Source: Psammoneis japonica (lineage: Eukaryota). Taken from it: DNA of 64,000 bases. The stretch is from contig QPGO01000019.1 of the NCBI GenBank assembly GCA_008632985.1, forward strand, positions 434,001 through 498,000. The letters run 5' to 3'. The notes beneath the pieces were generated by a model that was not told the origin of the DNA, ran no database searches, and was given only the letters and a program-made list of their open reading frames with translations. Positions within the stretch are counted from its first letter, which is position 1. Each line of letters begins with the position of its first letter. Shown piece after piece: positions 1-26,014 of the stretch. The translations under genes were made by a program, and so were the position numbers.

Positions 1-550
1 AGACATCAAGACGACCCCGCAGCTGCGTGCCAAAATCCTGGGGCACGTTTTGCTTAAATGGGCGTTGCTTTAGAAGTGCTCAGAATTGTGGGACAGTCAA
101 TGGCAGCAAGACACCTGCAGAACAACAGCTTTCCAATGGTGTCTTTTTTATTTCCATGCCCCCAGCAGATCCGAATCAGCATTCATGCATCCAAACGACC
201 CCGCAGCTGCGCGCCAAATTCCTGTTGCATTTTGCTCAAATGGGCGTTGCTTTAGAAGTGCCCAGAATTGTGGGACAATCAATGGCAACAATTTTGTCTA
301 CAGAACAAGTGCTTTTCAATGGTGTTGCTTTTGTTTTCATGCCTCAAGCACAACCGAATCAGCGTTCACACATCCAAACGACCCCGCAGTTGCATGCAAA
401 ATTCCTGGCGTGTTTTCATGAACCAGGCGTTGCTCCAGAAGCACCAACAGCTTTGCAACAATCAATGGCGATGCTTTCACTGCATCTACAGAACGAATGC
501 TTTCCAATGGTGTCATTTTGTTTTCACACCTGATGTACATCCGATCTTGT
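1..550. repeat. Tandem repeat, ~183-184 bp unit, about 3 diverged copies (truncated by window start)
   Basis: Anchor ACGACCCCGCAG recurs at 11, 195 and 378; downstream GGCGTTGCT..AGAAG and TT.CAATGGTGT motifs recur with similar spacing. Confidence 0.85.
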
Positions 551-1907
551 GGCTTCCTGCAGGTCGAATGCCAAAGTCAGATGAGCCATTGAAAACACGC
601 TGTTTGACCCAAATGTGAACTTGCTAAACAGCAATTAGATCCAAGCCAACAATGGGAAGAAACCAATCATTTGGAACTTCATTTTGTGGATGGTTTGGTG
701 GTGGCATTGGATTTGGCAGGCTTTTTGCCCAAAGAAGAAAAAACTTCCTCAAACACGCTCGTCCTCTTTTCTGCTTTTTTCCACATTGCTCTTGAGCATG
801 CACAGCTCCCGCAACGTTTCCACATCCAGCTTGCACTTCTTGGATGCTTGCAGCTCAGGGGAGCCGAAGGCCACTCCACTTGATAGATTTGAAAACAAGG
901 ACTCAGCCCCTTTCTGGGCGTCCTCCAAATTCTTCACAAAATCCCTTGACCGACAGTCTCGCTTGCTGATCCATCCAGGTGCCCAACAGCTGCAACTGTG
1001 GTCAGCTCAACGTCACAGCTGCAGGCTGAGTGCTTGCCTCCATTGAAAGGAGCTGGAGGTGTGAGACCAAGCTCCAACTCACACCTCTCGTTTGTTGTTT
1101 TTCTCATCTTGCTGCTGCTTTGTTGCGCTCCTCTTGAGTCTCATCTTTCTTTGCTGCCTGTGCCGAAAGCCATGCTGCATGGAGAGTCTTTGCCAGAACC
1201 TCACATCCCGTTGCGTCCTTGTCAGCTCCTTTCCCCGCCTTTGCATCATGCTTCTTGGCCAAAACACAAATTCTGCGGATGTTTGCTTGGCGAAAATTGC
1301 GAATTTTGCTTTCTGCCTGCTCTGGGGCACTGCAGCCTCTGGCTGGTCCATCAACAGGATCATGGAACAAGCCAAAAACCTCCTGCCATCTTCGATCACT
1401 CTCACCATCTGGCATTGGCAAGTGGGCATTTCGCGTGCTGATCAGCGTCAAAAGATCCCAACACAGCTCTTGGCTGACCTCTTTTGTCAGGTTTGGCAGG
1501 CGCCTCTTTCCAGCCATTGCCCCTCAATGTCAGCCTCCTTTGGGATGTTTGGAACCTCCAACAAAGGTTCTCTGTCAGCCATGTTGTTGCATGCAGAGGG
1601 CTTCACCCCAACAAGTGTCACCTCCCCATCAACACAACCCTCCTCTCCAGCGGCATGCCCAGTTGGTGGAGAGTTTTCATCTCCAACACCAAGTTCATCT
1701 GGGTGCATTAGAGCATCAAGAGCACTGGCGAAGCCACAGGTTGTTTTTTTCTCTGCCATGGTGCTGGTGTCACCGCATCTCATGGCCCGTCGACATCTTT
1801 TTTCTTTTTTGGAGCTGAGGGTTCTCGAACAATTCATGTGAGCATCTTACGAGAGGATTGCGCAGGAGATGTGCCACCGATGTTCCGAGAGAAAATGACT
1901 TCAAGTG

Positions 1908-1994
1908 CTGAAAATCGGCTCACAAGTCATGTGATCGGCAAAATGACGCGACTTCGTTGGACTTCGCACGGCTTCGCGAGGCTGCCCGCCAGCT
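1908..1994 (+). repeat. ~87-bp dispersed direct repeat, copy 1 (copy 2 at 8588-8674)
   Basis: CTGAAAATCGGCT...GAGGCTGCCCGCCAGCT occurs at both sites; most differences are CG/TG/CA changes. Confidence 0.85.
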
Positions 1995-2034
1995 CATTGA
2001 ATCTAATGACCCAAAATGCCTGATGAGCAGAAAA

Positions 2035-2387
2035 TGTCATGAGTTGTCGAAATTGTCGTGAGTTGTCGTGAGTTGTCATGAGTTGTCGTGAGTTGTCGGG
2101 AGTTAAGTGAGAAATGTCGTGAGTTGTCGTGAGTTGTCGGGAGTCAGGTGAGAAATGTCGTGAGTTGTCGGGAGCGCTTGCACATCATGTGCATGCTGCA
2201 AGCAATTAAATTTGACAATTTGTGTCACTTCATCAATGTGCACATCCCAAAGATTTGTCGCGAGTCAAGTGAAATTTGTCGTGAGCAGTCGTGAGTTGTT
2301 GTGAGTTGTTGTGAGTTGTCGTGAGTTGTCGTGAGTTGTCGTAAGTTGTCGTGAGTTGTCATGAGTTGTCGTGAGCTGTCGTGAGTC
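2035..2387. repeat. 10-bp minisatellite (GAGTTGTCGT)n in two arrays (~2035-2172, ~2255-2387)
   Basis: Directly visible tandem units, with CGT/CAT/TGT variants at the CpG. Confidence 0.95.
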
Positions 2388-2604
2388 ACAAGTGCCATTT
2401 AGGAGTCATTGTGCTTTCAGCGATGAGAATGCCTCGCCACATCTTTTTTTTTTAATGTGTGTTTTTAACAACAAATGGAAATTCACACATGTGTGTGTGT
2501 GCTGTGCCATTGGTTTAGCGACAAAACACGACAATTGACGGCGATTGTACATTGTCGAGGGATTGACAATTTTGAAAAGATGGTCTTGAGATGGCGGATT
2601 CGGG

Positions 2605-2779
2605 TGAATGAGACAGGCACATGTGCTCCATGACTGAGTGTGCCCTCTCTGACACATGTGTGTCAACTGACGCGTTGGACACACCGAGAACCGTTGGGTT
2701 TGTCCCGCATCAGCGATGATCGGGTCTCTCCTCGGTTTTCTCACAACCTTTGTCAAGTCATCTCAAGCTAGATCTTGCA
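2605..2779 (+). repeat. 5' LTR
   Basis: Ungapped alignment to 8401-8575, 155/175 identical by manual count. Confidence 0.97.
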
Positions 2780-3109
2780 CTGTAATTGCAGTCATTGTTG
2801 TGGCTTGTTCATTGCATTGTCAGTTTTGTGACAACGCGAAGAGTGCTCGTGCAGAAAATTTCATTCAAAATCGATCAGAATCGCAGCGCAATCATGCTCG
2901 TGAAATTGGCGATTCGGAGCAACGTTTGTTTGAACTCGAAGCTCTTGTTGCTGCTGTTGAATTCGTTCTTGTTTGGTTGTTGATTGTTCTCATTGTGTGG
3001 ATCAATTGGGAGTGCCTTGTTTCATTTATCTTGTGGATCATTGATTGTTTGATTGCTGAAATTGTTCATCGCCATGTGTCAAGAAGCCTTGGAGAAAGCG
3101 TGTGTTGAG

Positions 3110-4230
3110 TGTAAGATGACCAAAATTCGTGGATTCTGAGTTGCAGGAAGTGAAACTCACTCAAACCTTTGATGATGGCACCAAACTCTCAAAAATGTGT
3201 CCTGTTTTTACAGGAGAGCATGGAATTGAATCATCATTGCACGTGGAGGACAGGTTCCGGAAGGTGGCAAGACAACTGAATTGTGACACCGGAACAGAGT
3301 TGTTTGATGCTTTCGAGGATTGTTGTCTCCAAGGTGCTGCAGAGGCAAAATGGCAGAACATTGCAGTGGGCATCCAACAGAATCAATGAATGGCAGCTCG
3401 ATTTGGTCAAGCCATCTCGGCCTGCCATCTGTGCTGCGTGAAACCGACAGCTCGCGACACGATGAAGATGCATTTGCCTGCTTGCAAAAAGCCTCACTCA
3501 GCAGAATCTGAAACTCATGTTGATCGCATGGAAACGTTGTTTCATTGTGCCAACCGTTTGCCTGGAACCGTTCCTGAACTTACAGAGCAGGAGCAGAAAA
3601 ATGTCATCTTTCATGCCTTCCCTTTGACCTGGCAGCAGTCCTGCATTCATGTGGGCAGGAACCTTGTTGCGGATTCTATGGTGGACATTCAAGCCCACAT
3701 GAGCAACAAAAATGGCAACGGAGGGAACTCCAGTGACAAAAAGGGCAACCGTGACAAGAAGGAAAGCAAAGGCCAACCAAAGGCTGGTGATCCGTGTCCG
3801 GTCCTGTGGCACCATGGAAGGCTCACGTGGGGCCAGTGTCATGACAATCTGAACAACCCCAACCATCGTGGGCCTCAAAACGTGGCGGTCAAGGAGGAGG
3901 CCGTGGCGGTGGAGGTCAAGGCGGAGGTTGTTTCCAAGGAGGCCGTGGTCAAGGCCATGGAGGCAGTGGACGCTTTGGTGGTCGTGGCAACCAGAGCCAA
4001 GGAGGTCGTGGTGCCTGTCATGACAACAACAACAACAACAGACATCAGAATGACAATGGCAACCAAGGTGGTGGTCAACACCATCACAATGAAAACAACA
4101 ACCGTGGAGGCCAAGGTCAGGCTGACAGCTGTGCTGCTCAAGCAGACAACATGAACAATGACAACCAGGCTCGAGAAGCTCCTCGTGGTGATGCACACCA
4201 TTTTGACATGATCGGATGAGGCCCTCCACG
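3110..4230 (+). pseudogene. Gypsy gag relic
   Basis: Fragments 3129-3389 and 3390-4154 (CPVFTGEHGIE, FHAFPLTWQQ, knuckle-like CPVLWHHGRLTWGQC); Gly/Arg-rich tract in an adjacent frame; TGA stops and frameshifts. Confidence 0.8.
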
Positions 4231-4519
4231 TTGCGGAGGTGTGATGAGGTTTCAGCCAGATGGGCGGTTTCCTTGGCAGTTCTGAGAAGAAGGAGCTGAA
4301 TGCTCCAGAGCTGAATGCTCCCAATTGCCCATGAGAGAAGCATTTGTTGATGAGAATGATTGTGTTTTGCCTGAATGAAATGATGGATGTTTTGCTTTTG
4401 ACTGTTTTGAAAATCCTGATGAATTGTTGCCTGTTGAATTTGAAAATGATGCAGAAAATTGCGTGAATGAAGAGGGGAGTGTGTTTGATCAAGACGCATT
4501 TGAACACAACATTCCTCTC

Positions 4520-7500
4520 CCCAAAATGAACTCGCAAGTCTCGCGCACCGCGTTGGTCCCATCTACACCACTTGTTGCAAAATCGATTCAACGGCATGAG
4601 TCGAATCGTGTGATGCATGTTTGTTTGATTCTGGAGGATCTCACACTGTGATCTCGTCTCAAGTTTTACCTTGTTGAGCCACACCATCCATTGACGAACA
4701 TGGAGTCCGAGCTTTTCAAACAGTTGCAGGTCCTTTCCAGTCGGGTCGTTGTTGGGCAGCCTTGTCAAGCGACATCGTGTTACCAGAATTCGACAAGACT
4801 CGGAGGATTGACGGCTGTGTGGCTCACGTGTTCGATGCTCTGTGTGCACATGATGTCATTTTGGGTCAAGATTTCTTGGACAAGATTGGCCTCAACTTGA
4901 GTTGCGACACAAAGACGCTGTGATGGCTAGACCGTGTGATCCCAATGAAGGAACCTCGTCATTGGTCCAAGTCCCACAATTGGCGTGTGGCTCTAGACCA
5001 AATGGATGAATTTGATGAAGATTGTGAAGACAAGTTGGACTGCGGACACAACGACGGATGTGATGCCTGCATGCTCGACACCAAGCACAAAGCGACAGGT
5101 CCGGCGGAAGTGGTTCGGACCTCAGACCATCTCACGGAAGAGCAAAAGAAGAAGCTGCCATCAGCATTGGAAAAATGTTCAACCTTGTTTGACGGAACGT
5201 TGGGCCACTGTTCTCATGAAAAGGTGCACCTTGAAGTGGATGAAAATGCTGTTCCATGTCACTCAAAACCGCTTCCTGTTGCTCAAGTTAATGAAGAAGC
5301 GTTCAAAAAGGAGTTGAAACATTTGGTGAATCTCGGCGCACTGCGACCATGTGGACCTGCGGAATGGGCAGCCGGTGCCTTTGTTGCTCCAAAGAAGGAT
5401 GGCTGGGTGCGATGGGCATCCGACTTTCCAGAGCTCAACAAGGTCCTCAAGCAGAAAGTGCATCCTCTGCCAGTTGTTCAAGATGTGCTACAATGGAGAG
5501 CGGGCCACAAATTCTTCACGAAACTGGATCTCACTGTGTTCTACTGCAACTTGGAATTGGACAATGAAAGCAAGGAGCCAGCTACGATTGCAACTCCCTG
5601 CGGAAAGTTTCAGTGCTGTCGCATGGCTGTGGGATTGAAGCCAGCTCCAGACATTGCTCAATCCATCATTGAAAAGATTCTGCATGGTTTGGATGTTGAA
5701 ACTTATGTTGATGACATTGGCGCATTTGACACTGACTTTGATTGCCATCTCTCTTGTCTTGACAAGGTGCCACATCATCTCAAGGAGAATGGTTTGAAAG
5801 CCAATCCCTTGAAATGCGAATGGTGTGTTCAAGAAACCGATTTTCTGGGGCATTGGCTTGCTCCAACTGGCATCAAACCGTGGAAGAAAAAGGTCAAAGC
5901 AATTCTACAAATGCAACCTCCACGGAATGCCACTCAACTTTGATTGTTTCTCAGTGCAGTGACCTGCTGTCGCAATGTGTGGCCTCGCAGTTCTCACCCA
6001 CTTGCACCTCTGACTGAGTTGACAGGCAAAAGTCAGCTCCATTGGACAGAAGCATGTCAGAAAGCATTCAAAGAGATGAAGGCAGCAATGTCGCGGCAGA
6101 AGCATTGATGGCCCATCCCAACCACAACCTGCCATTCCATGTCTGCACCGATGCGTCAGACTGCCAGATGGGTGCTGCCATTGTTCAAGATGGCAAACCT
6201 GTGGCGCATTGGTCTAAGAAGCTCTTGGCGGCTCAACGCAACTGCTCAACAATGGAGAAGGAACTCCTGGCCGTCACCATGTGCTTCAAGGAATTTCGCT
6301 CAATGTCACTCAGTGCTGACATCACGGTTCACATTGATCACAAAAATCTCACCTTTTGCACTTTGAATGCGCAGCGCGTCCTTCGTTGGCAACTGTTCCT
6401 TGAAGATTTCGCGCCCACGTTTGAACATGTCAAAGGCAAGGATCACGTGCTCGCCAATTGTTTTTTGCCTTTGGAGGGGAAGAGACGCGTTCCAGACGCA
6501 GGTGGGAATCCGTGTGACATTGGGCCCATGGAATTCTGTGTGCAAGCTCCGCAGCAAAATCACACGGCAATTAAAATGTCAATGATCGCCAACAGAAAAT
6601 GAGGCAATTTTGCGAACACACAAGCTCACCCATGATCGAAGCACATCATTCATTTTTTGCTTGGCCAGTTGCATTCTTCAGACATTGAAGAATGTAACTG
6701 GTGCATTGTTGTTTCTGTAAATTCGTCACATGAAACGTCTGGGGCTTCGCAAAACAGCGAGTCTGGACAATTTTTTTAAAACACACGTAGAAATGTACGT
6801 GAGAAACACATGACGGATGATGAAAATTGTTTGTGTCACACGTCAGTGCTGCGAGCTGCCACCCAGGGCTGGAACGCGTCAAGAGCCTTGGGCCAAGCAG
6901 TGAACGCAAAGGAAAAATCATTCATTTTAAAAAGTTGGATTCCAGTGAACTGAGCAGGACCGAGGAAGAGGAAGATTTGGAGTTGGGCGCTTGCAGGTTC
7001 AAGTGTTGCCGTGCTCCAGTTGATCCCACTGATGAGTCTCACGCCGCCTCTTCCTCTCTGTTTGACAAGCCCGAATTGTTTGAATGCTTTTTGAATTGCC
7101 CGATGCTGGACAAAATGCCGAATCCTGCCGAGATGCTGAGGATGCAACAGTTCCAGTTTGAAGACCTCCAACTGAACCAGCAGAGACAACAGAATCCGCA
7201 GCAGTTCGTGGTCAAGATTGTGAACCATCGTCCTCTCATTTGTTGTCGTTTGCATCTGAATGATCCACCTGGAGCCTGGAAAATTTGCATTCCTGCTGCG
7301 TTGTTGCCGGATGTTGTTGCATGGCATCATCGCGCATTGGGCCATTGTGGAGTCGTGCGATTGCATGAAAGCATTCGGAATCACATGTGCCACCCCACAT
7401 TGCATCAATGTTGTAATGAATTTGTTTGCAATGCATGTCAACGATTTAAACAACTGGGTTCTGGATGTGGAGAGTTGCCTCAACGTCAAGCGCCGTTAGC

Positions 7501-8290
7501 TCCATGGTCGGAAGCAGCGGTTGATCTCATTGGACCGTGGAAAATGCCAATTCAAGACCAAGAGATTGAACTCAGTGCTCTCACTTGTGTTGATGCTGTC
7601 ACTGGATCAACTGAACTCATGCACATTGACAACAAAACTTCTCAGCAGCATGTGACCAACAAGTTTCGCAATCTTTGGTTGGCTTGTCATCCCAGACCAA
7701 ATTGATGCATCCATGACAATGGTGGAGAATTCAGTGGTTGGGAATTTCAAATGCCACTAAATCAAGCGGGCATTGCTGATGCACCAACAACATCTCGAAA
7801 TCCCACAGCCAACTCTGTTTGTGAACAAATGCACCAAACGGCAGCTGATGTCTTGTGCACTGTGGTTGTCGCTAACCCACCTTTGAATGTTCAACAGGCC
7901 AAGCAGATTGTGGACAATGCCCTTGCCACAGCCTCTTGTGCTTTGCGATGCTCCCACTCAAGGTCGATGGGTGTTTCTGGTGGAGCTCTGGTGTTTCAAC
8001 GTGATGTGATTTTGGACCTGCCTGTTGTCTCCAACCTTGCAACGATTCAAGCAAACCGACAAGTGTTGATCAATGAGAACCTGCGACGACAGAATGCAAA
8101 GCGTCATTCCTGCAATTGTCCAGTTGGTCAAGATGCATTGATCAAGTCGGTGGATCCTTCAAAGTTGGAAGAACAAGCTTGTGGTCCATTTCAAATTGTG
8201 CAAGTCCACACCAACGGGACTGTTTTGGTGCTGTGAGTGCTGCAAGTTGTTGAACGAATTGACACTCATCATGTGGTGCCACGTTAGAGT
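4520..8290 (+). pseudogene. Gypsy pol relic: aspartic protease, RT, RNase H, integrase
   Basis: LFDSGGSH protease motif at ~4625; RT PKKDG, TKLDL, YVDD, FLGH; RNase H TDASD, EKELLA, DHKNL; integrase H..LGH, C..CQ, VDLIGP, DNGGEF, NP.ANS.CE. Confidence 0.95.
6484..6880. mobile_element. 397-bp non-autonomous TIR element (MITE) nested in Gypsy pol
   Basis: Perfect 12-bp TIR GACGCGTTCCAG/CTGGAACGCGTC (imperfect to ~22 bp); 4-bp TSD AAGA at 6480-6483 and 6881-6884; removal restores ...LEGKSLG... in pol. Confidence 0.9.
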
Positions 8291-8388
8291 TGAGGGTTTC
8301 TTCCCAACATCTGGGTTCCCTTCTCCGTGCGCATGTGGTTTGAATTTTAGTCAAGTGGTTCCAATGGTGTGCGTGTTCCCAGCACCAT

Positions 8389-8400
8389 GGAGGGGAAGAG
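8389..8400 (+). other. Polypurine tract
   Basis: GGAGGGGAAGAG directly abuts the 3' LTR. Confidence 0.9.
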
Positions 8401-8575
8401 TGAATGAGACAGGCACATGCACTCTGTGACTGAGTGTGCCCTCTCTGATGTGTGTGTGTTGACTGACGTGTCAGACACACCAAGAGCTGTCAGGTTTGTC
8501 CCGCATCAGTGATGATCGGGTCTCTCCTTGGTTTTCTCACAACCTTTGTCAAGTCATCTCAAGCTAGATCTTGCA
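8401..8575 (+). repeat. 3' LTR
   Basis: Matches the 5' LTR and is followed by TSD TCGGG. Confidence 0.97.
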
Positions 8576-8587
8576 TCGGGAATGTCC

Positions 8588-8674
8588 CTGAAAATCGGCT
8601 CTTACGTCGTGTGATCAGTGAAATGACGTGACTTCATTGGACTTTGCATGGCTTTGCGAGGCTGCCCGCCAGCT
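8588..8674 (+). repeat. ~87-bp dispersed direct repeat, copy 2
   Basis: Matches 1908-1994. Confidence 0.85.
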
Positions 8675-9705
8675 AAATCCGTCAATGGTTTCTCCAAAGT
8701 TGCATGAAAACAAGTCGCACAACTCGGCAAGGACACTCCGCTGGCCAGTGGCTCTCGACAGGCAACAAAATGAAGCAATCTCAAATCGAATTGTGCATCA
8801 CGCTGGCCAAGGAAAAACAACACATTGTTTGTTCATGATCAAAAACAATGCCTGGGTTCTGTTGCGAAATGACTGCTCCGATTGTGTCACCCTTTTACAC
8901 ACTTTGACACCTCTGTGCTTCCACCATGCAAAACTCATCAAACCACAATGAGAAAAAGGCTCCCGTGGCACCACCATTGCATCTCCGTGACTGTGCACAT
9001 GTGGCTCCACCAACCATTCAGGAATGCCAACCATGTGTGGATTGATTGTGCCCCAGCAGAGTTGTTGGTCTGAAGCTTCTAACGAGTCTCTGCCAAACTG
9101 GCAAAGAAATGAGACCAGCATGACCAGATGCATGCATGGCAGTTCTGGACAATGTCACAGAGAAACAGCAGGTGCAGGATCACACCTGGGCTCCATGCAC
9201 TTGCATGGAGCTGTGAGAGCTCTGTGGCCATGCACCACAAAGCCTGAGAAGAAGCCCCCCCCCCCCCCCCGAAGAACCCCAAATGATCAGCACAGACTTG
9301 AGCCCAGCAGATTTGTTTCCTCCTGTGTTTTTGCTTTGGTGTTTTTTAGATGCTCAGACCAAGGAGATGTTGACACATCAACCCACCAAGGAAGGCCCGC
9401 AATCGCCATGTTTTGGTGGCAGAGGCTCTCTGTTCTTTATAAAAGGTTAACTGCACTGTGTCCAGCTAGCCAGAGTGGGGCTAGAGCAGAGCAATCTGTT
9501 CGTTCATTATTTTACACATCACCGTCTGTCCATCCCACCGTTCCACTCATCGGCGTTGCGTCGGCCGGTTGTCGGTTTGGAAGGTTGTCATTTGTCATAA
9601 AGAAAAAGAGAGCACGGGACCAAGGCACAAGCCGTTATTGTTGCTTTCTCTCTTGCTTTCTCTCTACATACCGGTAGTAGTTCGTTGCTTACTATTCTTG
9701 TTGGC

Positions 9706-11130
9706 ATGCCGAAAGAGAACTCCAAGAGTCAGTTCCATTTGTGGAAGTCATCAGCATGTCCATCCAGTGCAAAAGCGATGCTGAAGATTTTTGGGGTCCT
9801 CGCTTTCCTATCGCTTTTCGTTGTCTCTGTGTTGCACGGGATGCTCGAATCGAGAAACATGGGAAGCCCAAATGCAGAGTTCCTCGCGGAGGTTTCTCAA
9901 GACCCCCCAACAATCCCTTTCTACGTTTACCCACTAGAGCAATTTCCCTCGTTTTGGGGTCCAAACAGCACTTGTGACTACTCAGTACTTCGTACCTCAA
10001 AGCTCGACGCTTACGTTCACGCGATTCAAGCCATGAAACGGCATCCCTGGAGGACAATGAACCCTGAGGAAGCACTTGTTGCATTCATACCAATATCGAT
10101 TGACCCTTGGAAACGTGGTCAATGCCCAGGAGTGACGGAAAAGGACATCTTGGAGGAATTACAAAAAGTCATGAAAGAAAGTCCCATTTTTCCAAGCAAG
10201 CGGCACCTCTTTATTGCGCATGATTTTAGAAGTTTTTCGCTGGCCGAGAAGATTACTTATTCCTTGTTCTCGCCAACAAGTCTAATCTGGGGTGGAAGGG
10301 AAGAAGGTATCGGTGACTGCAAGATTTTGATTCCCCACACATCCAACTACGCATCCCTCATGTCGCTGCGCAGCCCAAATGAATGGAGAACTCCCGGATA
10401 TGCTGCTACGACACCACGTCCTTACTCGATCCATATGGTGGGGCAAGTGGACAGCAGAAAAGCGTATAGGGATCGTAAGGCTCTCTTCTTGTCAAACCGG
10501 ACAACCAGTGTCCCGCATTCAATTATTACAACAACCTATGTTCCGGAGGCCCATGATCGGTTTATAGAGACGGATCGGTTTCGATTTTGCACTTCTTCAA
10601 ACGACACCGACAGATGCCTGAGGAAGGAAAACATCGACCGCTTTGAAAGTCAGCAAACACAAGAAATGTCTAATTTTACCCTTGCTCTCAGAGGCGACAA
10701 TTTGAGCTCTGACAGATGGATCAACGGCATGTCAGCTGGGACTGCAATGATCCAAGTTATCAGTAATGACGCAGGATGGAAATGGTTTCCATATCCTTGC
10801 GCCATTCCATGGGAAGATTTTGTTCTTACCATCAATCAGACAGAATTTCGTTCCGATCCAGTCGGTAGCATCAATCGATTGATCTCGCCGAAAAATCTTC
10901 CCGAACAAGAGCTGCTGAAGCTGCAGAGGCAAAGTCTGCATTACGTGTCGGACATTGACTGGACCAGTCATTCCTCACGATCATTGGAGAATCTCCTGAG
11001 AGAAGCCTTCTTCATACCTTGTAGCTCATACGATCCCTTGCCCCCTTTGCGAGAGCAAGCTTGGTGTAACGAAAGTCGCCGACAAGCACGTCAAAGGGCT
11101 AAAGATCAATTGCTACTTGTCACTCCTTAA
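9706..11130 (+). CDS. Exostosin-like glycosyltransferase (GT47), type II membrane protein
   Basis: N-terminal TM; FYVYPL, NPEEA..AFIP, RHLF and S.FTLALRGDNLSSDR..GT..PYP.AIPWEDF match the exostosin pattern. Start is ATG 9706 or 9778. Confidence 0.85.
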   Translation: MPKENSKSQFHLWKSSACPSSAKAMLKIFGVLAFLSLFVVSVLHGMLESRNMGSPNAEFLAEVSQDPPTIPFYVYPLEQFPSFWGPNSTCDYSVLRTSKLDAYVHAIQAMKRHPWRTMNPEEALVAFIPISIDPWKRGQCPGVTEKDILEELQKVMKESPIFPSKRHLFIAHDFRSFSLAEKITYSLFSPTSLIWGGREEGIGDCKILIPHTSNYASLMSLRSPNEWRTPGYAATTPRPYSIHMVGQVDSRKAYRDRKALFLSNRTTSVPHSIITTTYVPEAHDRFIETDRFRFCTSSNDTDRCLRKENIDRFESQQTQEMSNFTLALRGDNLSSDRWINGMSAGTAMIQVISNDAGWKWFPYPCAIPWEDFVLTINQTEFRSDPVGSINRLISPKNLPEQELLKLQRQSLHYVSDIDWTSHSSRSLENLLREAFFIPCSSYDPLPPLREQAWCNESRRQARQRAKDQLLLVTP

Positions 11131-11517
11131 GCAAAAAGAGAGGCACTGATACTCATGCTGAGTGTCGACACGCAATAATACAAATTTCATTTTGAAAGTT
11201 TCTTCAGCTGTAGAAGAAGCTATCCGAGCTGCACCAATGGCGGGCATTCAGGATGAGCAAACCTATACGCCATTGCACACGTTGGAATCAAATCCTGTAT
11301 TTGTCTAGTTTGAAGCTGCGTGGCTTGCAAAGCTACTCAAAAGCGGAAAGGATTATGTCGTTGCTACTATCAAACAGAAATTCCCTATCGAAGCCATTCT
11401 GTCAACACGAAGAGATTGCTTCGTTTGCAGCACTCACCCTTGCCGTCCCCTGTATTGCTAGAAGTAGTATTTTGTTTTACGATACACTAGAGATATTGTG
11501 CATGTGTGAAGGTTTGT

Positions 11518-12951
11518 TTATCTACTCTGCACGTTAGCATCCTCCCGCTCTGGAAAGAGTAATAGGGTACCACCCAGTCGCACATCAAGTCTTCTCTGCA
11601 TGCATTCTCCCGACTGCAGCTCGCATTCGTACTTAACATAACAGCACGAACCGCAATTGTTGTGTATTATAAGCTCTAAACTATCCCTCACGGCAAGAGC
11701 AGTCACAGCGCTCTTTGTAACCAACAGCCTCCGACCCCGCCACAAGAAGTTGGCACCAGCTTACATTCGTTTTGGGCGGCGTTTCGCTTTTAAATGAGAG
11801 GTTCCGTAGAAGGCGTGACATCTATCAAGGTTCCAGGGCTGTGGCAATCGTACAATCTGAGGAGGATCGCGTTTCATTTGAAGCAAGGCCCAGTACACCC
11901 CTTGGTCACCATGAGGGGATTGCAAGATGCCATCTCCTGGATGTCCCCATGGTGAACGAGCGTGTCCTTTATTTGCCTCTTGTTGAGTTGCAAGCGCCGT
12001 CATGAACTGGGCTGGGTAAGGGTCGTTCTTTTGCAGTTCAGCCAAGTTTAATACTACAATGCAACTGCACATATTCCCAGATGCATTTATCTCCTGTCCT
12101 TCATTATGAAGAGGCATTCGATAGAGCCATTTATCTTGCTTTGAGGGCAGCTGAGGGATTAAGCCCGCCGGATCCGTCATGAAGATCATGTCAGTGTCAA
12201 CGACCACCACCGGTTCGTCTCTCCCAGAAAACAAAGGCAATCGGTGAACGAAAAGCTTGAGCGCTCCCCAATTGCCGCTGTGGTGAGTAACGTTGTATTT
12301 CATGCCCTCGGTCTCTGCTGCAAGCCAATCAGAATCGATAACTTGAATAATCACCGTAAATTGAAACTTAGTCTCTTTCAAGACTGCAAACATCTTTTCG
12401 AACAATACCGAGCCGGCCTCATTTGTAAGCAAAACAAGCTCCACGTCCACCGACGACAGAAGCAACATGCTGTTAACCAGCGACCGAACCTCATCAAATA
12501 TGTCGTCGTCGCCTTGAGTTGCATCTTCAATTCCACAAGAAACTACAAATGTTATGCGGCGGTCGCGGTTGCCCAATTGTTTATGAGCAATCTGGCCGTG
12601 TGTTTTCAATGGCTCGTTCATCGTTGAGTAATGATGGAGCTTTACAGGATGTAGCTCGACTTGCGTCGACCACCAGGTGTTGAGCCACTCCAAGCGGTAA
12701 TTCTTATAAAAGTCAAAGAACACCCCAACATTATCTTCAAAGTGTGCGCAGTTGCGATGTAGCATTCCTACGCAGTCGCCTCCATCACATGATGGAGGCC
12801 TTATTGAATCATCTTCCTCGACCAACTCGGTGCGCTGATGCATGCTTTTTTCCAGCTTGGAGAAACTTCCAAGCTGATGATGCACAATGATCGCAACAAC
12901 GCAAAGCAAAGGCAAGCATTTTAAACTCTTTCGGTATGTTTTTGGTGCCAT
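11518..12951 (-). CDS. GT8-like glycosyltransferase (LARGE/xylosyltransferase-like); predicted intron 11681-11764
   Basis: N-terminal TM; HHSG.WGALKL, VVVDTD, GDQG, WN motifs. A GTAAG donor overlaps the ORF stop and an in-phase AG acceptor adds an IIHNN exon. Confidence 0.75.
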
Positions 12952-14069
12952 CCTTCGATTGTGCTGCACTGAGTATTACAAAGAGAATAACGATCAAATC
13001 TGTGGCAAAAATCGTGTGAAAGGGTTGGGCGAAAAGACTCGAATAGAGATGTGGAAAGGTCCAACGAGAGTCGTAAGGGAAACAAAGTCACTGATGGGAC
13101 GATCAGGGACGATGAAAAGAGAAGTGACTCCTGAATGAAATTGATTGCTTCTTTGCTCTTTGCCTCTTTGCTGTACGGAGTTACGACTATGTAGCACAAT
13201 GTGAACTGTAAAAAACGTCCCGAACACCCGTATCGCATTTTTTGTACATCGATATTTAATGATAACGGCTTTTAGCAAATAATTAGGGCATTTTTACAGA
13301 TGTAACCCATACAATTTGTTGTCAAAAATCGATACTTGTAACACAATTAGAAGATTTTTTAATTAAATGTTTCATATTCAAATTAAGACTCAAATTTTGA
13401 TATTACTTTTTCAATTCCGACTGCTTCAATCAATAAACGAGTTCGCATGTTTTATTAAAAGACGTGGCCGGCGTTTCGGTCCATTTTGGCGGCTCCGACA
13501 TTTGAATTTACTTAAAACACCAGACATTTCTATAGGGCTTCAGTTCGTAGAGCAATAAATACGTAGACTGGTACAAATTCTACAGCAGGAGTCATGTGCA
13601 GTCATTTTACATACCAATCATTCAGACATTCACTATATATTTAAATACAAAGTATGCAGTTTGTAATAGTCTATTTTGCACATTGTGCTAGTCGTAGCCT
13701 CATACAGACGCGACGCGATACACCAAACCACGCCACGCCGCAGTACCGTAAATTACCGGACAGTACGCACGACGGTATGTACTTTATGTAGGGCCCTACT
13801 GTACGGTACTTCAGTCGTATGTACGACTGCATGCTCACCTACCGTGGCGTTGTGGACGTTCAACGGAAATTACTAAGAGAGGGCAGGTTGTTTTTCGATG
13901 ATAGTGAGGTCTAAACCGAAAAATGATATGATACATATATTAAGATTTTTAGCTTTGTGATAAACTTTATTTACATACGCAGGCGATAGTAAAAGATTTC
14001 ATGAATAATTAATATATTAGTACTTGAAATTAGTATATTAAAATTTCGAATTTTCAATTTGTACGAGCG

Positions 14070-17000
14070 ACAACTGCTTCTTTTCTCACCACCTCGCATC
14101 TCGCACACCAACAACACAATGCACTCTCCTCAGACACTGGCAATTGGGCAAGCAATGGGGAGATGGGGAAGAGGCAGTGCCCACCCATCAGAGGGGGGGG
14201 GCATCATGTTTGTTGGCTGTGGTGCCCTCGCACACTCCTCTCTGGTGCTCTTTTGTTTTGCACAAGAAAAGCAGCAAAAGCAGTGCACACGAGCTTTCCT
14301 GCAATGTCGCTGAATGCCATGTGAGGATCCCAGTTTCTGCAATTCTCCTGAGTGCTCCCCACACAGGTGTCACTGTGCACAATGTGAGCCAAGTGCTGCT
14401 GAGGTTCTTTCTGTGAAAGCGAGGTCACCAGTGCCAAAACATCTTTTTTTTGTCAGCCAAAAATGTGATGTGAAACAAGCTGGCATGTTTGTTCATGCAA
14501 AAAATGGTTTTTTGGGGCACTTGGTGGGAAAGGTGTGCCAAAAACTTGATCTCCCCACCTTGCCCTGAAAAGAGAGTTTGTTCTGCCCTTTGCAAGTCAC
14601 ACGCGTCACATGCTTGCTCGCATGCTCTGCAGCTTCCATTGTGCAGCACTGGGCAATGCCACAATTTTCAACTTAGATGAACCTCTGAGACCATTAAAAA
14701 TTCTCATCACTTTTTGTGCACAAAAGGCCATTTGGGGTGCCACTTTGCCAACACTCTGCAGTGCAATGTTGTTCTTGTTTGGACCTCCAAGCTTCAGCAC
14801 AAAAAATGGCTTCAAGCATGCTCAAAAGCATCAAGTGCATTTTTTATCTTGAGCAATGCATGCATTGCTTGTTACCTTGCTGCAAAGAATCTTGTTGTTG
14901 TGGAGCCACTTCTGGCCCACACACTTTTCATTGCTGCAACAAAGTTCTTGCACATTTTCAGCATTTGAAAATGATGACAACAGAGCTGCCACTTCGGCTG
15001 CTGCCCTCAAGATGACTTCTGGCAGAACAAAGCATTCCAGCACAATCTCAAGCATTGTTTCTTCAAGTCCTGCAGTTGCTGGCTGGACTCTGAGGTTCAG
15101 GCTTTTGCAAGCACATGCTTTGCCTGAGAAGAGAGCGCACATGCTGTGCAATGTGTTGCAGATGTGCCCTGGTGTGTTCACCCATGCCCATGCACTCAAG
15201 GCTTTGCACAAGACTCAACTCATCTCTTTTTTTTCAGACTGAAACAATGCCACCTAAAAAGCTTCAATTCCTCACACAAAAGAGATGCAAAAATTCTCTG
15301 TTTTCCTCTGCCTGTTCAGTGATGCAGACCAGGCCGCACACATCTGTCGACCAACAAAACACAAATTGTGCTTGCCTCCCTCCTCCACATTTTTTGCATC
15401 TTGCAATGCAGCAGCTCTCACAGCTTTCTTCCACTGGGGCATCTCCTTCTCCAGGTGACTCCATCCCCTCCCCACCTGCAAGCAAACATGCTCTTGTCAC
15501 TTGCCAAGGAGCATGTGGAAGACCACATCTGGCATGCATGCTGCTGCCCTGCATGACCAGGTGGCACACCCACTCCTGGGTGGGATGCATTTCAGTTGAG
15601 AACAACCAACAAGGAGGAGGGTGGCTCTTGAAAAGAAGTTTCTGTGTCATTTTGCAACTGCCATGATGTGCTTGGTGGCTGCCAGTTCCTTGTCCACTGC
15701 CGTTCCTGCAGTCTGCATTCACATCTCCTTGAAACAGCAGTCTCAAATCAAAGTTGTGCAATGGCACTGACTCACAAGACAGCAAGAGAATGTTCAAAAC
15801 AAGCAAAAAACTGATTGTTTGTTGTGCGGTGGAGATCCTGTGTGACCATCTTTCTTGTCCCGAAATCAAAGATTGCACACCAAAGTTTGCTTTGACACAA
15901 CAATCTGTTTCTGTCACAGACATTGAAATGTTGAGAGCTGACCACTTGAGTCAGGCTGCTGGTCGAATTGAAGAAGAAAAGATTCCAGCTGTCCAGTGAG
16001 AGCTTTGACTTTTTGGAGATGTGATCTCAGCCATTGTGCAGTTGCACAATTCATCAAGCTGGCATGGAAATGAGAGAGGTGCCAATCATCTTTCATTGGT
16101 TTTGTGAGCCAATCTAAAGAGCTGCTCTTACAGAGAGATCCTTGCATTGGAGAACAGCACAGAATCAACCTGCTTCTTGGGGTTCAATGTTGCTGTTTGT
16201 GATTGTTGACCTGTGATGCTGCCAACTTTGATTGTCCATGCACACATCAGGTGCTTCACAGACTGCAAAGAGAGCAAAAATCCAATCTGCAGTGTCAAGA
16301 AGCCAGCTGTGCATTGTTTGGTGTTTGTCCAAACTTTGTTCTCATTTGATTTCTGGAAGACAAAACCTCACACCAACCATGATGCCTCTCTTTCCAACCT
16401 CTTGGTGTCACACACAGCAATGAAGAAATGTCATCTCATGTGAAGCCTTCCTCGTTGGACCTTGGAAACATTGCTTGTGTTCATTGGTGATTGCCGCCCC
16501 ACAGCAGAAAAAATGCAAGCCCACTTTGGAGCCATGTTTTGTCCTCTCCAAAGCCTTGGGCTCCACTTGCTTGCCCCTTTTTGTCAGGAGATGCTTGAGA
16601 GGAGTGTTTGGAACATTCTCTGGAAGGGGGCATGCAGGGGCTGACGACTCCACCACTGCAATGGTGCCTTGTTCCAAGGTGGTGGCCATTGTCATTTTTT
16701 GGTTTCTGGACAAAGGCTTTGGTGCTTTGCATGCAAAAAAAAATTGTCGCAGGGAGAATGGTGCGCAACATCATGGTTGCATCACAACTGTGAAATTGTT
16801 TTGCAGGATTTGGTCACAATGAATTGCATGTGTGCAATTGTGGTGCAATCAGCTGTGGATGATGCCTCCAAACAGAGGTGTGTTTTTGTCATGTCCCCTC
16901 TCCTTTGAATGCATTGCAGCAGGAAGCAAGAGGAGAGTCTGATGTGTGATTCATGCACATTCAAAGTGCAAGCTGCACAAGCTCTTTTGTTTGCAAACTC

Positions 17001-18560
17001 TGGTTTGCAGCCAGCTGGGAGACTCCAATGCTGCTTGGCAAACCTGTTTGCAAGCACATTTTGCAAACATTTTGCAAACCAAAGAATGAACCCAGTTTGC
17101 AAACTTCTTTGGCAAACTGCAAACACTGCTGTGAAGTCAAGCCCCATGTGCCAGCACCAGCCAAAACCTTTTTTCTCAGTTGAAAATTTGATGTGTGCTC
17201 AGCTGGCACATTTGTTCATGCAAGAAACAGTTTTTGTGAGGCACATGGGAAAGGTGTGCCAAGAGCTTGATCTTCCCACCTTGCTCTGAAAAGAGTTTTG
17301 CCCTGCCATGTGCAGGTTGTGTGCCTTGCTGCTTGCTCATGTGCCGCTGTTGCTTCCATTGTGTGGCAACTGGCAATGCTGCGTTGTCATCAATGCTGTT
17401 GCAGACAGCACAAGGTGTGCAATGCAGCATTTTCGACTTGGAGAAACCACTGAGATTGTTGCTGCAATGTGGGCTTTGCAGGGCTGCCATCATGCAAATG
17501 TCCTCAAGACTTTCTGCATGCCAAAGGCCGCTTGGGTGCTTGCCAACCTTCATGCTCATGTTTGGAGCTCCAAGCTTCAACACAAAAAACAGCATCAAGC
17601 ATGCTCAGAAATGCCAAGTGTGTTGTTCTTTATCTCCAAATGCATGTGCTGTTGCCTTGCTGTGAAATTGAAGATGGCAACAGAGCTCTCACTGGCTGCT
17701 GCTCTCCAGACAACTCCTGGAGCAAAGCACACTGGCGCAGTCTTAAGTGCTGGTGTTTTTAAGTCCTGCATCAACTGGCTGGACTCCAAGAAGGGTCAGA
17801 GGCTTTTGCAAGCATGCTTTGCCTGACATGAGAGCACACACTGTGTGCAATCCATTGCTGAAGGTGTGCCCTGGTTTCAACCATACACTCAAGGCTCTGG
17901 ACAAAAACTCATCTCCCTTTTTCCAGACTGAAACAATGCCACCAAAAAGGTTTCAATTCCTCACACAAAAGAGGCAAAGACTCTCCATTTTTCTCTGCCT
18001 GCCTGATGATGATGCAGACCAGGACAGACAAATCTGCTGTCAACCAAAAAAACAAATGTCTGTGCAATCTGGCAGCAATTTGCCTTCCTCCTGAACATTT
18101 TTTGCATCTTGCAATGCAGCAGCTCTCTCAGCTTTGGCATCTCCTTCTCCACATGGATCCTTTCAAAACTGCAAGCAAATGCATTGTCACTTAAATTGGA
18201 GCATGTGTGGAGGCGCAGACCTTGCGTGGCATGTCTGCTGGTGCCCTGCATGACCAGGTGGCACACCTGCTTCTGGGTGGGATGCAGTTCATTTTAGAAT
18301 GACCAACAAGGATGGCGGCTCTTGGCAGCAAATGTTCTGACATTTTGCAACAGCCATGATGTGCCTGGTGGCCAGGAGTTCCTTGTCCACCACCACGCCA
18401 ACAGTCTGCTTCACGTCTCCTGGGAACAGTCTCAAATAAAACAAGTTGTGCAATGGCAATGACTCGCAGGACAGCAAGAGAACCTTCAAAGCTTGCACAA
18501 AACTGATCTCTAAAAATGATTTTCGGAGGCTGTGAGAACCCATGTGGGCCTGCGGAGACA
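14070..18560. repeat. TpA- and CpG-depleted repeat block 2 with a diverged ~1.35-kb direct duplication (~14470-15815 vs ~17195-18510)
   Basis: Shared anchors TTTGTTCATGCAA..GGAAAGGTGTGCCAA, CAGACTGAAACAATGCCACC, GACAGCAAGAGAA at ~2.7 kb offset. No recognisable protein. Confidence 0.85.
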
Positions 18561-18776
18561 CGCGATTGTACTGTGGAGAACTTTGTAACCCTCATGGTTG
18601 TCTTGAAAACAAAGATTGTGCGTAAAAAGTCCAGTTTGACATAATAAGGTTTTATTAACAATAATTTCAACAGAATTCTAATAAAGAAACCAAGTTACAC
18701 GCAATACAACTTCGCCGCACACGTCGCTAGTCCCTCGATTATTTGGTTTCTTGTTGACGCGCATCACAAACAATCA

Positions 18777-24019: not shown

Positions 24020-24406
24020 GGTGTGCGGCTGTTTTCTGAAGAAAAAGTGAGACGAGTGATGAGGGGAAAATCAGAGCCGCGCCATTTTTTCGGTCGTTAT
24101 TTCTACAGGCGAATGTAGCATGTCGTTTTGTACTGAAAAAATCCTGTAGAATGTACGTGACTGCACACGAGCTCTAAGGTATGATACTCCGACCTCGTGC
24201 TGGCTTTCTGGCATGCGTGCGTCCAGGCGATCGCGCACGCGAGGCGAGGAGGGCAGGATACATAGGAGTCGAAATTATCGTTACAGCGCATCCGTCCGAA
24301 CACGATAGATGTAAGCTCGTTTTGAATTTTCTCGCATCGCAGCAACGGTCAAAAATACCGGTACCGCGACCTGCGCCATGGCGGCTCTCTAATCATTCTC
24401 AACATC

Positions 24407-25870
24407 ATGTATGCACCAACAGCATCGGCACAGCCACTCTTGTCGTCACCTGTAGCTGCAGTGTTTCCAGAACTTGCTTGGAATCCTTTGGTGGCAACCA
24501 AGTGTGGATTGAACGAATTGAAAAGACAGCACTGCGATCTACCGACTATTCAAAAGAGTATATACACGTGTTGTTAAAATTGTTGGGACAAGCCTCGAGT
24601 AGGTGAGAAAGAAAAAAATGGAATGAGAAACGATAAAGAGTGTTGAGCGTCTCTCTGATTTTTTTTGTTTCTCATTGTTGTATACAGTCCATCGTGTCGT
24701 GTATCCAAACTCACCTCCCCATCAAATGAAAAGGAGGCACTCGGCCTCTTTTACGTGGACTCTGTTGGAGTGATCACACACTATGCCATTTACAAATTAC
24801 TGGAATTCTCGAGAAATGAAAACAAATCCAGAGCACTTTTTGAGGACGTTACGGCTACACAACTGCAACCCCTCGTGTTTGTACTGGACTGGGACGGCGA
24901 TTTGTACGCTCAACAGGGTGCCGCACTGTGTCTGGCGCATTTGCTACCAGCAACAATACAATCCAACAACAATAATCATGATGCTTCCACTGCAATAGTA
25001 CTACAACAGACACTTTCTTGGATTGCCATGCAATGCATGTCTTCCAATACGATTGAATTGGCCATGCCCGCCTTGTGGATATTTATGGATGATTCATTCG
25101 CACGGCGTGTGTTTGGAGAGTGTGGTGGAATTGGATGTTTGGCAGCCGCCTTGCAGCAGCAATCCAATACACAAATTTTATATGAAGCAACCTATTGTTT
25201 GTGGCGTCTGTCATTGGATTTATTGTCATCTACTATTCAAACAAGATTTGCACGAGACGGTGCGATACCCGCCTTGGTGGAAATGGTCGTTTCGGCACCA
25301 CGGGAAAAAGTCGTGCGGGTCGCCTTGGCAGCTCTTGTGGAATTGGCAACTTGCAGCATGTTATTCATTACTATAATGCTCGAGTGTGATTTGTTGTTGA
25401 CTTTGAATCATTACGTAAAGGAACAACATTACTGGAAAGATGTTGACATGGTCAATGATTTAAAGACCTTGCACAAGTTGTTGCATCAACACGACAAGGA
25501 AACGAGTAATGATTGGGATATTTACGTGGCACAAGTTGAATCCGGTCAATTGGAATGGGGCTCCATTCATACAAGCAAGTTTATCCAACAACACATAAAG
25601 CAATTTGAACAAGATGAGTTTGCATTGGTCAAGAAACTCATCCAAATCATTGTCGTGACTACAAATAATGACGACGACACCATTGCCATTGCGTGTTTTG
25701 ATCTTGGAGAATTTGTACGGCATTATCCCAATGGTCGATCCATTGTCAAAACCTTGGGCGGAAAAAAAGCCGTCATGCAACACTTAAATCATGACGATCC
25801 CGAGGTGCAACGGCACGCACTCCAAGCCACATCGAAAATTTTAATCAAAAATTGGGAAGGAATACGGTAA
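24407..25870 (+). CDS. V-type H+-ATPase subunit H; intron ~24603-24688; exon 1 start uncertain (apparent frameshift)
   Basis: REKVVRV, LEWGSIHTSKF, IACFDLGEFVRHYPNGR, GGK..VM, V..HAL.A.SK are characteristic of subunit H. Confidence 0.9.
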
Positions 25871-26014
25871 TAATAGAGCAGGAAATAAATGCTAGCTAAA
25901 TGGCGATGCTGCTATAGCAGAGTAGTTGTTGGACAAAAGTGTTGTGATCCTTGTAAGTTGAAAGATCGTGCTTGCGAGAGACTTGATTATTCTCAGAAAC
26001 ACCATTACCACACG

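Follow-up and report, generated by a model that had tools for sequence, protein, structure and literature searches.

Before April 2026, to our knowledge, no natural process was known by which chromosomal DNA is mutated from A:T to G:C at one given dinucleotide. The closest described system was then reported from the chlorarachniophyte Bigelowiella natans, where integrated viral DNA undergoes A:T>G:C hypermutation at TpA only (Mettrop et al., bioRxiv 10.64898/2026.01.13.699255, 14 April 2026). Among 15 mutation-accumulation lines, 231 of the 302 nuclear point mutations fell in two viral inserts, one from a giant virus (186 kb, single-copy) and one from a virophage (25 kb); 230 of them were A>G or T>C changes, every one at TpA. 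Their rate was about 6e-7 per site per generation, roughly 1000-fold above that of the remaining genome, and they occurred in just 11 of the 15 lines. Also found in that genome were 324 coding sequences poor in TpA, among which reverse transcriptase and DDE domains were enriched, and 124 clusters of windows low in TpA and high in CpA plus TpG. The authors proposed an ADAT2-like DNA adenine deaminase, and the main text of the preprint is silent on CpG, flanking context and diatoms (10.64898/2026.01.13.699255). Our results showed the same signature in another major lineage, in a 64-kb stretch of the Psammoneis japonica assembly (contig QPGO01000019.1; hereafter the window, on which the whole analysis was carried out) that includes a Ty3/Gypsy retrotransposon at positions 2605-8575. 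A first-pass annotation of this DNA knew of no described system of the kind, a view now outdated by the B. natans preprint (10.64898/2026.01.13.699255). No report of TpA hypermutation in diatoms was found in the literature searched, subscription journals being outside its scope.

Likenesses between both cases are clear. As in B. natans, TpA>TpG and TpA>CpA changes affected both strands, were confined to inserted DNA beside normal host DNA, and left TpA-poor, CpA- and TpG-rich tracts behind. Unlike B. natans, a member of Rhizaria, the host here is a diatom-affiliated stramenopile; the named best matches of two host open reading frames (ORFs), one V-ATPase H and one leishmanolysin-like, were exclusively diatom (36-41% and 45-55% identity, respectively). 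The B. natans rate was measured in live lines with partial depletion (Rho TpA of 0.45 in the insert from a nucleocytoplasmic large DNA virus), whereas here the process is deduced from sequence and the ratios are 0.04-0.12. Moreover, G:C>A:T changes were not elevated in B. natans, in contrast to the strong elevation of CpG>TpG/CpA found here (17 CG-type replacements). New beyond that system are saturation on a long terminal repeat (LTR) retrotransposon, timing from an LTR pair, co-occurring CpG decay and the neighbour rule TAT>TAC>TAG>TAA. TpA hypermutation is not a one-species oddity: it reaches an ecologically major group with genetically tractable members, and its target range includes LTR retrotransposons besides integrated viruses.

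The near-absence of TpA from the Gypsy element, already noticed in the first-pass annotation, was borne out when observed/expected dinucleotide ratios were compared between blocks and gene stretches (0.09 versus 0.55-0.67 in genes), and the pattern proved wider, covering 1-9390 and five more blocks. TpA ratios of 1-kb windows were 0.01-0.15 at positions 1-9000 and at 14-18, 29-35, 38-39, 44-45 and 58-64 kb, where TG and CA rose to 1.5-2.1 and CpG was down. In 250-bp bins the change was abrupt, e.g. from 2 TA at 18251-18500 to 15 TA at 18501-18750. Edges were drawn by two-state segmentation of pyrimidine-purine dinucleotides, placing the end of the first block at 9390/9398 and the others as listed below; because TA and CG were scored jointly, 1-9390 was cut into sub-blocks where CpG persists. 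Edges were sharp to about 10 bp, and that of block 2 was a repeat end at 18504-18507. The signature was confined to six such sharp-edged blocks lying between gene stretches of ordinary composition, and one of the blocks is a demonstrated LTR retrotransposon insertion. The blocks, unstranded and delimited by segmentation and composition (for block 2 also by self-BLAST), are:

1-9390, block 1, Gypsy element nested in older low-TpA DNA
14104-18504, block 2 (TA 0.05, CG 0.13)
29106-34907, block 3, unclassified, without Pfam domain (TA 0.05, CG 0.23)
37951-39328, block 4, unclassified (TA 0.11, CG 0.15)
44112-45542, block 5, unclassified (TA 0.06, CG 0.25)
58296-63776, block 6, unclassified (TA 0.04, CG 0.14)

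Observed/expected ratios and GC contents were as follows:

Gypsy element 2605-8575: 34 TA in 5,971 bp; TA 0.09, CG 0.61, TG 1.68, CA 1.58, GC 0.483
Other low-TpA DNA: TA 0.04-0.12, CG 0.13-0.62, TG 1.51-2.00, CA 1.46-1.88, GC 0.446-0.498
Five gene stretches: TA 0.55-0.67, CG 0.93-1.10, TG 1.09-1.23, CA 1.16-1.28, GC 0.449-0.484
Blocks pooled (27,505 bp): TA 0.07, CG 0.32, TG/CA 1.74
Gene stretches pooled (34,805 bp): TA 0.59, CG 1.01, TG/CA 1.17

GC content was equal in and outside the blocks, with 0.45-0.50 and 0.45-0.48, respectively. Stop triplets counted on both strands amounted to 129 TAA, 63 TAG and 1,383 TGA in the blocks versus 686 TAA, 538 TAG and 1,320 TGA in the gene stretches. Since affected elements retain a normal GC content and long ORFs, they are missed by repeat finders based on GC or stop codons.

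The Gypsy element is a complete LTR retrotransposon, and the interval singled out in the first-pass annotation was exactly one insertion. Self-BLAST returned direct repeats at 2604-2779 and 8400-8575, which reading at base level corrected to 2605-2779 and 8401-8575. LTRs with TG...CA ends, a target-site duplication, a polypurine tract and the order reverse transcriptase-RNase H-integrase place it in Ty3/Gypsy, and its nearest named relatives were diatom elements of Cylindrotheca, Nitzschia and Ditylum (40-64% identity). Its features, all on the + strand, are:

2600-2604, target-site duplication TCGGG, left copy (sequence reading)
2605-2779, 5' LTR, 175 nt, TG...CA ends (self-BLAST, reading of ends, pair alignment)
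3390-4154, gag-like ORF piece ending in TGA, without Pfam match, called gag-like from its position alone
4924-5943, reverse transcriptase ORF piece ending in TGA (PF00078, E 1.3e-15), conserved Tyr now His/Cys
6018-6602, RNase H piece in another frame, ending in TGA (PF17917, PF17919)
6824-8236, integrase region with an in-frame TGA at 7703-7705 (weak Integrase_H2C2 match over 6824-7705, E 5.4e-05)
8389-8400, putative polypurine tract, so named from its position directly 5' of the 3' LTR
8401-8575, 3' LTR, 175 nt (pair alignment with the 5' LTR)
8576-8580, target-site duplication TCGGG, right copy (sequence reading)

The 5-bp target duplication was perfect and unmutated. ORF pieces were spread over three frames, each ending in TGA, and the five pol/gag pieces contained 0.2% Tyr, 4.6% Cys and 4.7% His. 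TA density was 5.7 per kb versus 54.9 +/- 13.4 (minimum 29.8) in 78 related Gypsy loci from metagenomes. The DNA around the insertion is older and itself TpA-poor, with TA ratios of 0.12 at 1-2604 and 0.10 at 8576-9390.

The direction of change was examined at the protein level. Comparison of the reverse transcriptase piece with 120 database homologues showed that it kept only 2 of 10 conserved Tyr, the others being 3 His, 3 Cys, 1 Leu and 1 Phe, whereas homologues kept 88% on average. The comparison was extended over reverse transcriptase, RNase H and integrase to 471 columns conserved in the 78 metagenome loci. There, the element kept Tyr at 2/23 columns (8 His, 9 Cys, 2 Phe, 1 Leu and 1 Trp elsewhere), Ile at 9/24 (10 changed to Val) and Met at 4/10 (4 changed to Val), while non-Tyr residues were kept at 328 of 448 positions. 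At the same Tyr columns, mean retention among the 78 relatives was 0.88 and never below 0.65. The 141 replacements were classed by the single-base path leading to them from any codon for the consensus residue, TA paths taking priority where several existed:

TA>TG: 24
TA>CA: 18
double TA change: 1
CG>CA: 14
CG>TG: 3
other transitions: 11 (including 2 A>G and 1 T>C outside TpA)
transversions: 36
multi-step: 34

A:T>G:C replacements were found 43 times within TpA versus 3 times outside it, and 15 of the 18 replacements requiring A>G at codon position 1 came after T. The transversions and multi-step replacements are those expected between families just 39-59% identical. The enrichment of A>G at TpA over other contexts claimed in the first-pass annotation is upheld by these counts, and most of the motifs it quoted also stood: KVHPL, GHKFF, TPCGK, FQCCR, FLGHW, AHWSK, RNCST, FEHVKG and WHH..LGH were all present in the translation. 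Yet the Cys of TPCGK has to be withdrawn as a case of Tyr>Cys, as its column is Phe in 85% of relatives.

Many viruses and transcripts are poor in UpA and in CpG. It might be argued that these elements, or a donor genome, avoid both dinucleotides as many RNA viruses do, with no hypermutation involved, and the host genes of the window indeed have a TA ratio of only about 0.6. Such an intrinsic bias is hardly credible here, because conserved Tyr of catalytic domains were replaced, TGA stops and frameshifts disrupted the reading frame, the LTR pair of a single insertion differed at these very sites (see below) and none of the 78 relatives was TpA-poor (minimum TA ratio 0.43).

A control at the DNA level was obtained by recoding the window as purines and pyrimidines, so that transitions vanish. 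One segment of block 6 (59028-59207) was thereby paired, over a core of 187 positions, with a homologue outside the blocks:

51657-51824, + strand, unmutated homologue of block-6 segment 59028-59207, in a normal intergenic stretch (purine/pyrimidine-recoded match)

The outside copy had 15 TA and 9 CG, the block-6 copy 0 TA and 1 CG. Twelve TA sites of the former were TG (7) or CA (5) in block 6 and none showed the reverse; likewise, seven of its CG sites were CA (5) or TG (2), again with no reverse case. The remaining 33 mismatches were of mixed types. One of the changes turned AATAAA into AGTGAA. This fragment means either that short or isolated copies escape, or that the block-6 element had earlier captured host DNA. 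Both comparisons agree in polarity, and the earlier proposal of polarised TA>TG/CA mutation of transposon DNA is supported by 43 of 141 replacements and by 12 changes versus 0 in the DNA pair.

Repeat-induced point mutation (RIP) of Neurospora and other fungi, which is triggered by duplications exceeding a threshold length, converts C to T (CpA>TpA in Neurospora, other CpN elsewhere) and yields AT-rich, TpA-rich DNA with TAA and TAG stops. Like RIP, which strikes mobile or duplicated DNA, the process seen here is a saturating transition hypermutation that is limited to mobile DNA and disables it. Unlike RIP, it removes TpA, holds GC constant and eliminates TAA and TAG.

The LTRs of one retrotransposon insertion are identical at its creation, which allows timing. 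Those of the Gypsy element differed at 20 of 175 positions, all transitions with no transversion, and were 100% identical over 181 nt in the purine/pyrimidine alphabet. Fourteen of the 20 differences formed 7 adjacent TG-versus-CA doublets, 5 were single CG-versus-TG/CA differences and 1 lay elsewhere. A TG-versus-CA doublet represents an ancestral TA (or CG) resolved in opposite ways in each LTR, and both events therefore postdate the separation of the LTRs. Most doublets probably stem from TA, since the 5' LTR showed no CpG loss relative to its partner. No single TA-versus-TG/CA difference was left, the sole TA being in a shared CTAG; hence, TpA loss was complete in both LTRs apart from that site. 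CpG loss was partial and other substitutions were near nil. In all 5 CpG differences the 5' LTR had CG and the 3' LTR TG or CA, which is weak evidence (5/5) but suggests that CpG decay may differ between the LTRs of a single element. The same doublets were found beyond this pair: ten in-block repeat pairs contained 56 TG/CA doublets in 2,252 aligned nt, as opposed to none in 381 aligned nt of two gene-internal repeat pairs, despite 59 mismatches.

Conservation of the remaining TpA depended strongly on neighbours. Relative to the gene DNA of the window, the fraction kept was 0.54 for TTAA, 0.38 for CTAA/TTAG, 0.20 for CTAG, 0.155 for GTAA/TTAC, 0.029 for GTAC and 0.006 for ATAC/GTAT; for ATAT it was 0 of 218. 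The ten contexts were fitted by a multiplicative half-site model, in which the A of each strand is lost at a hazard fixed by its 3' neighbour alone (chi-squared 4.5, 6 degrees of freedom), with hazards of 2.71 for T, 1.65 for C, 0.78 for G and 0.28 for A; the same analysis counted no ATAT versus 179 expected and 60 TTAA versus 120 expected. Hazards for the Gypsy element by itself, taken against the 78 relatives, were 3.02, 1.21, 0.68 and 0.66, respectively, and ATAN was absent among the element's 34 remaining TA. The loss order is TAT>TAC>TAG>TAA and the target, as deduced from the half-site hazards, is therefore 5'-TAY-3', or 5'-RTA-3' if T is the attacked base. The order lends itself to comparison with the de novo mutations of B. 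natans and with candidate enzymes.

Both strands were affected, as seen from 24 TA>TG versus 18 TA>CA replacements and from similar TG (1.68) and CA (1.58) ratios in the element. The order of TG and CA along the six blocks was random (runs-test z from -1.8 to +1.0), showing that events occurred site by site and not processively along one strand; there were no strand-coordinated clusters. Strand symmetry, near-saturation and a direction opposite to that of fungal RIP, all three advanced in the first-pass annotation, were supported by the replacement, DNA-pair and LTR comparisons alike. Its candidate of error-prone repair by polymerase eta fared less well. This polymerase produces A>G at TA and AA alike, with TAA as a hotspot, whereas AA/TT was not depleted in the blocks (1.26 versus 1.17 in genes) and TAA was the least mutated triplet, with the lowest hazard (0.28). 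WA>WG mutagenesis by polymerase eta was thus rejected. AT and the other dinucleotides likewise displayed no depletion comparable to that of TA.

Deaminase-based mutational restriction of retroelements is known from ADAR hyper-editing and from APOBEC3, and the present process resembles both in this respect. ADAR acts on RNA, where it leaves strand-coordinated runs of A>G and favours a 3' G; APOBEC3 turns C into U on one strand of the complementary DNA (cDNA). Here there were no runs and the 3' order was T>C>G>A. ADAR-type hyper-editing fixed by retrotransposition was rejected on these two grounds (z from -1.8 to +1.0 for strand runs) and because the LTRs differ by 7 doublets, whereas changes made in RNA would leave both LTRs alike at insertion.

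CpG was depleted too in every low-TpA block (0.13-0.62), TpA and CpG loss sharing the same blocks and the same edges. They were not equally advanced: the young Gypsy element had lost about 85% of its TpA versus about 40% of its CpG, while older blocks were low in both. Several relatives were CpG-poor yet TpA-normal, with TA/CG ratios of 0.81/0.27 in L022, 0.74/0.45 in L044 and 0.64/0.37 in L069; these three together with L033 and L058, all metagenome Gypsy contigs, spanned 0.27-0.56 for CpG and 0.64-0.96 for TpA. CpG decay without TpA loss thus appears to be common in other hosts. Because these relatives show CpG loss alone, we regard the two losses as distinct processes to which the same silenced DNA is exposed. 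No periodicity of CpG spacing was detected in block 1. Decay of 5-methylcytosine accounts for the CG>TG/CA half of the signature and cannot yield TA>TG/CA, as had been stated in the first-pass annotation, and the most plausible reading of CpG>TpG/CpA in the blocks is that methylated CpG decayed there in the ordinary way, in parallel. Diatom transposons are CpG-methylated, and diatoms have DNMT4 enzymes related to fungal RID, the function of which is given as unknown (PMC9998398).

Read support came from a public run (X1), in which 72% of sampled words of 5000-14999 were matched and from which word-based contigs were placed on 1-20000. Three contigs, at depths of 57-65, covered 13676-15416 (3 differences in 1,741 bp), 15390-18124 (3 in 2,735 bp) and 18098-20000 (0). 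With a single-copy depth of about 60, the TpA-free block 2 is therefore present in reads at single-copy depth, and it was approximately single-copy at a likeness of at least 85%. Of two further runs, X2 covered 12 of 30 bins and X3 none, and no RNA run was among those listed for the stretch. One might still suspect that modified bases (e.g. N6-methyladenine, 5-hydroxymethyluracil or 5-methylcytosine) were miscalled by a long-read basecaller or polisher and that the true sequence is TA and CG. In favour of such an artefact, the library type of X1 is off record, its sample is the same as that of the best-matching run, and block 6 contains a gap of 7 N. The reproduction of block 2 by the X1 contigs excludes polishing error and, by inference, long-read basecalling error as well, since noisy long reads would not be expected to yield such contigs. 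Nor would miscalls create TGA stops, frameshifts and LTR doublets that make evolutionary sense, and unrelated public contigs encode Tyr-free reverse transcriptases of other families. Taken with these observations, an artefact seems very improbable.

The Gypsy family was high-copy in X1, at depths of 2,000-38,000 versus about 60, and its copies differed chiefly by transitions (736 transition versus 201 transversion places, TG/CA doublets included). Summed depth over 6004-7337, in the RNase H and early integrase region, was 18,800-38,400 versus 1,900-3,100 elsewhere in the element; this segment is common to many more copies or families.

Tyr-poor relatives were also recorded among database proteins. 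Four of the 120 reverse transcriptase homologues displayed Tyr>Cys/His, namely P0181 (0/10 Tyr kept), P0183 (1/11), P0136 (3/11) and P0121 (4/11). Among the best 150 matches of an exhaustive search of 1.84 billion representatives, five (P0249, P0297, P0370, P0352 and P0359) had less than 1% Tyr and 8-10% Cys plus His. P0249 contained no Tyr in 699 residues, each of the 10 conserved Tyr positions being occupied by Cys or His. As the Tyr-poor proteins were just 38-55% identical to the Gypsy element, several families are affected. These nine entries, outputs of gene callers on other Gypsy families, are presumably products of the same process; gene callers release Tyr-free 'proteins' from affected elements and nine such are now in public databases.

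It is very probable that a DNA-level process turns TpA into TpG or CpA within transposon-derived DNA and ceases at the edges of the insert. It acts once both LTR copies exist, hits each TpA independently and on either strand with a preference for 5'-TAY-3' (5'-RTA-3' on the other strand), and approaches saturation, being fast relative both to CpG decay in the same DNA and to background substitution. Tyr codons are lost to Cys and His, T-preceded Ile and Met codons to Val, and GTA and CTA codons disappear as well; TATA- and AATAAA-type signals would presumably follow. The element is thereby disabled with its GC content unaltered. The host may perform this hypermutation as a defence, which would then be enzymatic and host-directed. 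Targeting would depend on silent chromatin or on small RNA and not on homology between repeats, a view suggested by the single-copy target of B. natans and by the short homologous fragment in open DNA that escaped here. As regards dependence on duplication, the repeat targeting advanced in the first-pass annotation is still conjectural: the Gypsy family is high-copy, but block 2 and the B. natans target are about single-copy and single-copy, respectively; the escaped fragment is about 170 nt long, and the two gene-internal repeats of 150-230 nt were unchanged.

As to chemistry, the ADAT2/TadA family, which includes engineered adenine base editors, is the only protein chemistry known to make DNA adenine read as G, and its natural substrates carry U before the edited A. 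Our tentative proposal, to which we give slightly less than an even chance, is that an ADAT2/TadA-like enzyme deaminates adenine to hypoxanthine. A natural DNA adenine deaminase directed at double strands or chromatin, if true, would be a new class of defence and of interest for base editing. The amphioxus enzyme BjADAT2 deaminates DNA at GAA and TCG (thus cytosine too), chiefly in hairpin loops, a preference unlike the TAY target found here (PMC10354150).

The attacked base may instead be thymine. A TET/JBP-type oxidase would produce 5-hydroxymethyl- or 5-formyluracil at the T of 5'-RTA-3' in silenced DNA, and T>C would result from mispairing with G. All counts given above are equally compatible with A>G in TAY and with T>C in RTA; 5-formyluracil is known to mispair with G, and dinoflagellate hydroxymethyluracil favours TpA. 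Near-saturation would demand a very efficient miscoding lesion, though, and a search for literature on JBP or thymine modification in diatom transposons returned none, all 5-hydroxymethyluracil titles being dinoflagellate. We consider this thymine-directed route unlikely.

Several points weigh against the explanation favoured here as a whole. TpA being self-complementary, A-directed and T-directed action are indistinguishable from sequence. Deamination of DNA adenine has been shown for a single ADAT2, that of amphioxus, which prefers GAA and not TA (PMC10354150). Polarity at the protein level depends on relatives only 39-59% identical, and no TA-bearing master copy of this Gypsy family was seen. 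The rate of the process is derived from one LTR pair. For X1, neither library type nor platform is on record, and the assembly may itself derive from the sample of this run. The transposon origin of the five blocks besides the Gypsy block is suggested by repeats and composition, these blocks having no recognisable domains. Finally, edges coinciding with the element, an untouched target-site duplication, differing LTRs and saturation in a young element would all fit editing before integration, in which cDNA is attacked on both strands in the cytoplasm or nucleus (an APOBEC3-like logic, at TpA), inserts already mutated and undergoes nothing further in the chromosome. Such an origin is nevertheless distinctly improbable: in B. 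natans, new mutations of this type appear during vegetative growth in viral DNA that is chromosomal and single-copy, the older Gypsy-flanking DNA and four blocks without LTR structure or reverse transcriptase bear the same signature, the intermediate Tyr loss of P0136 (3/11) and P0121 (4/11) is as expected of a cumulative process, and the CpG decay in the same blocks is chromosomal.

A broader reading of hypermutation in the chromosome, which we find more doubtful than convincing, would see in it an ancient defence across the supergroup of stramenopiles, alveolates and Rhizaria (SAR) or wider. A 5'-TAY DNA adenine deaminase would be steered to silenced transposon and viral DNA by the chromatin or small-RNA signal that recruits CpG methylation, new insertions would lose Tyr codons, promoter and polyadenylation signals before ordinary substitutions accumulate, and RIP-like C>T would have been replaced in this diatom lineage as the chief means of inactivating mobile DNA. 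In a bolder form of this reading, a single ADAT2-like enzyme would deaminate A at TpA and C at CpG.

The remaining blocks were less informative. Block 2 had LTR-like direct repeats at 14426-15815 and 17155-18507, 77.5% identical with 32 TG/CA doublets, its right edge being the repeat end. Among 147 stop-to-stop ORFs of the remaining low-TpA DNA (of 150 with at least 75 aa, three overlapping the N run being omitted), no Pfam family was matched below E 0.001 and 5 matches were at chance level. Comparison of the blocks with the 78 related loci by tblastx gave no match, and no terminal inverted repeats were found when sought in the other blocks. The 7 N of block 6, an assembly gap, are at 62097-62103. 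Block 4 contained a 166-bp tandem duplication at 38866-39198, 96% identical (158/164) and with zero TG/CA doublets, which must therefore have arisen once TpA was already gone. Tandem arrays also occurred at 1-544 and 2024-2413, to the left of the Gypsy insertion within older low-TpA DNA; the repeat units displayed about 79% DNA identity (278/351 and 278/352) versus 90-94% in the purine/pyrimidine alphabet and have therefore diverged largely by transitions.

A domain scan revealed no deaminase or DNA-modifying domain among the scanned host ORFs of the window. Host genes were found at 41199-43832 (- strand), 55242-58160 (- strand) and 45847-49296 (+ strand), two of them leishmanolysin-like (peptidase M8) and one a long ORF with a peptidase M64 match; further host ORFs were Cdc6/ORC-like, V-ATPase H, DnaJ, HPP and PDZ.

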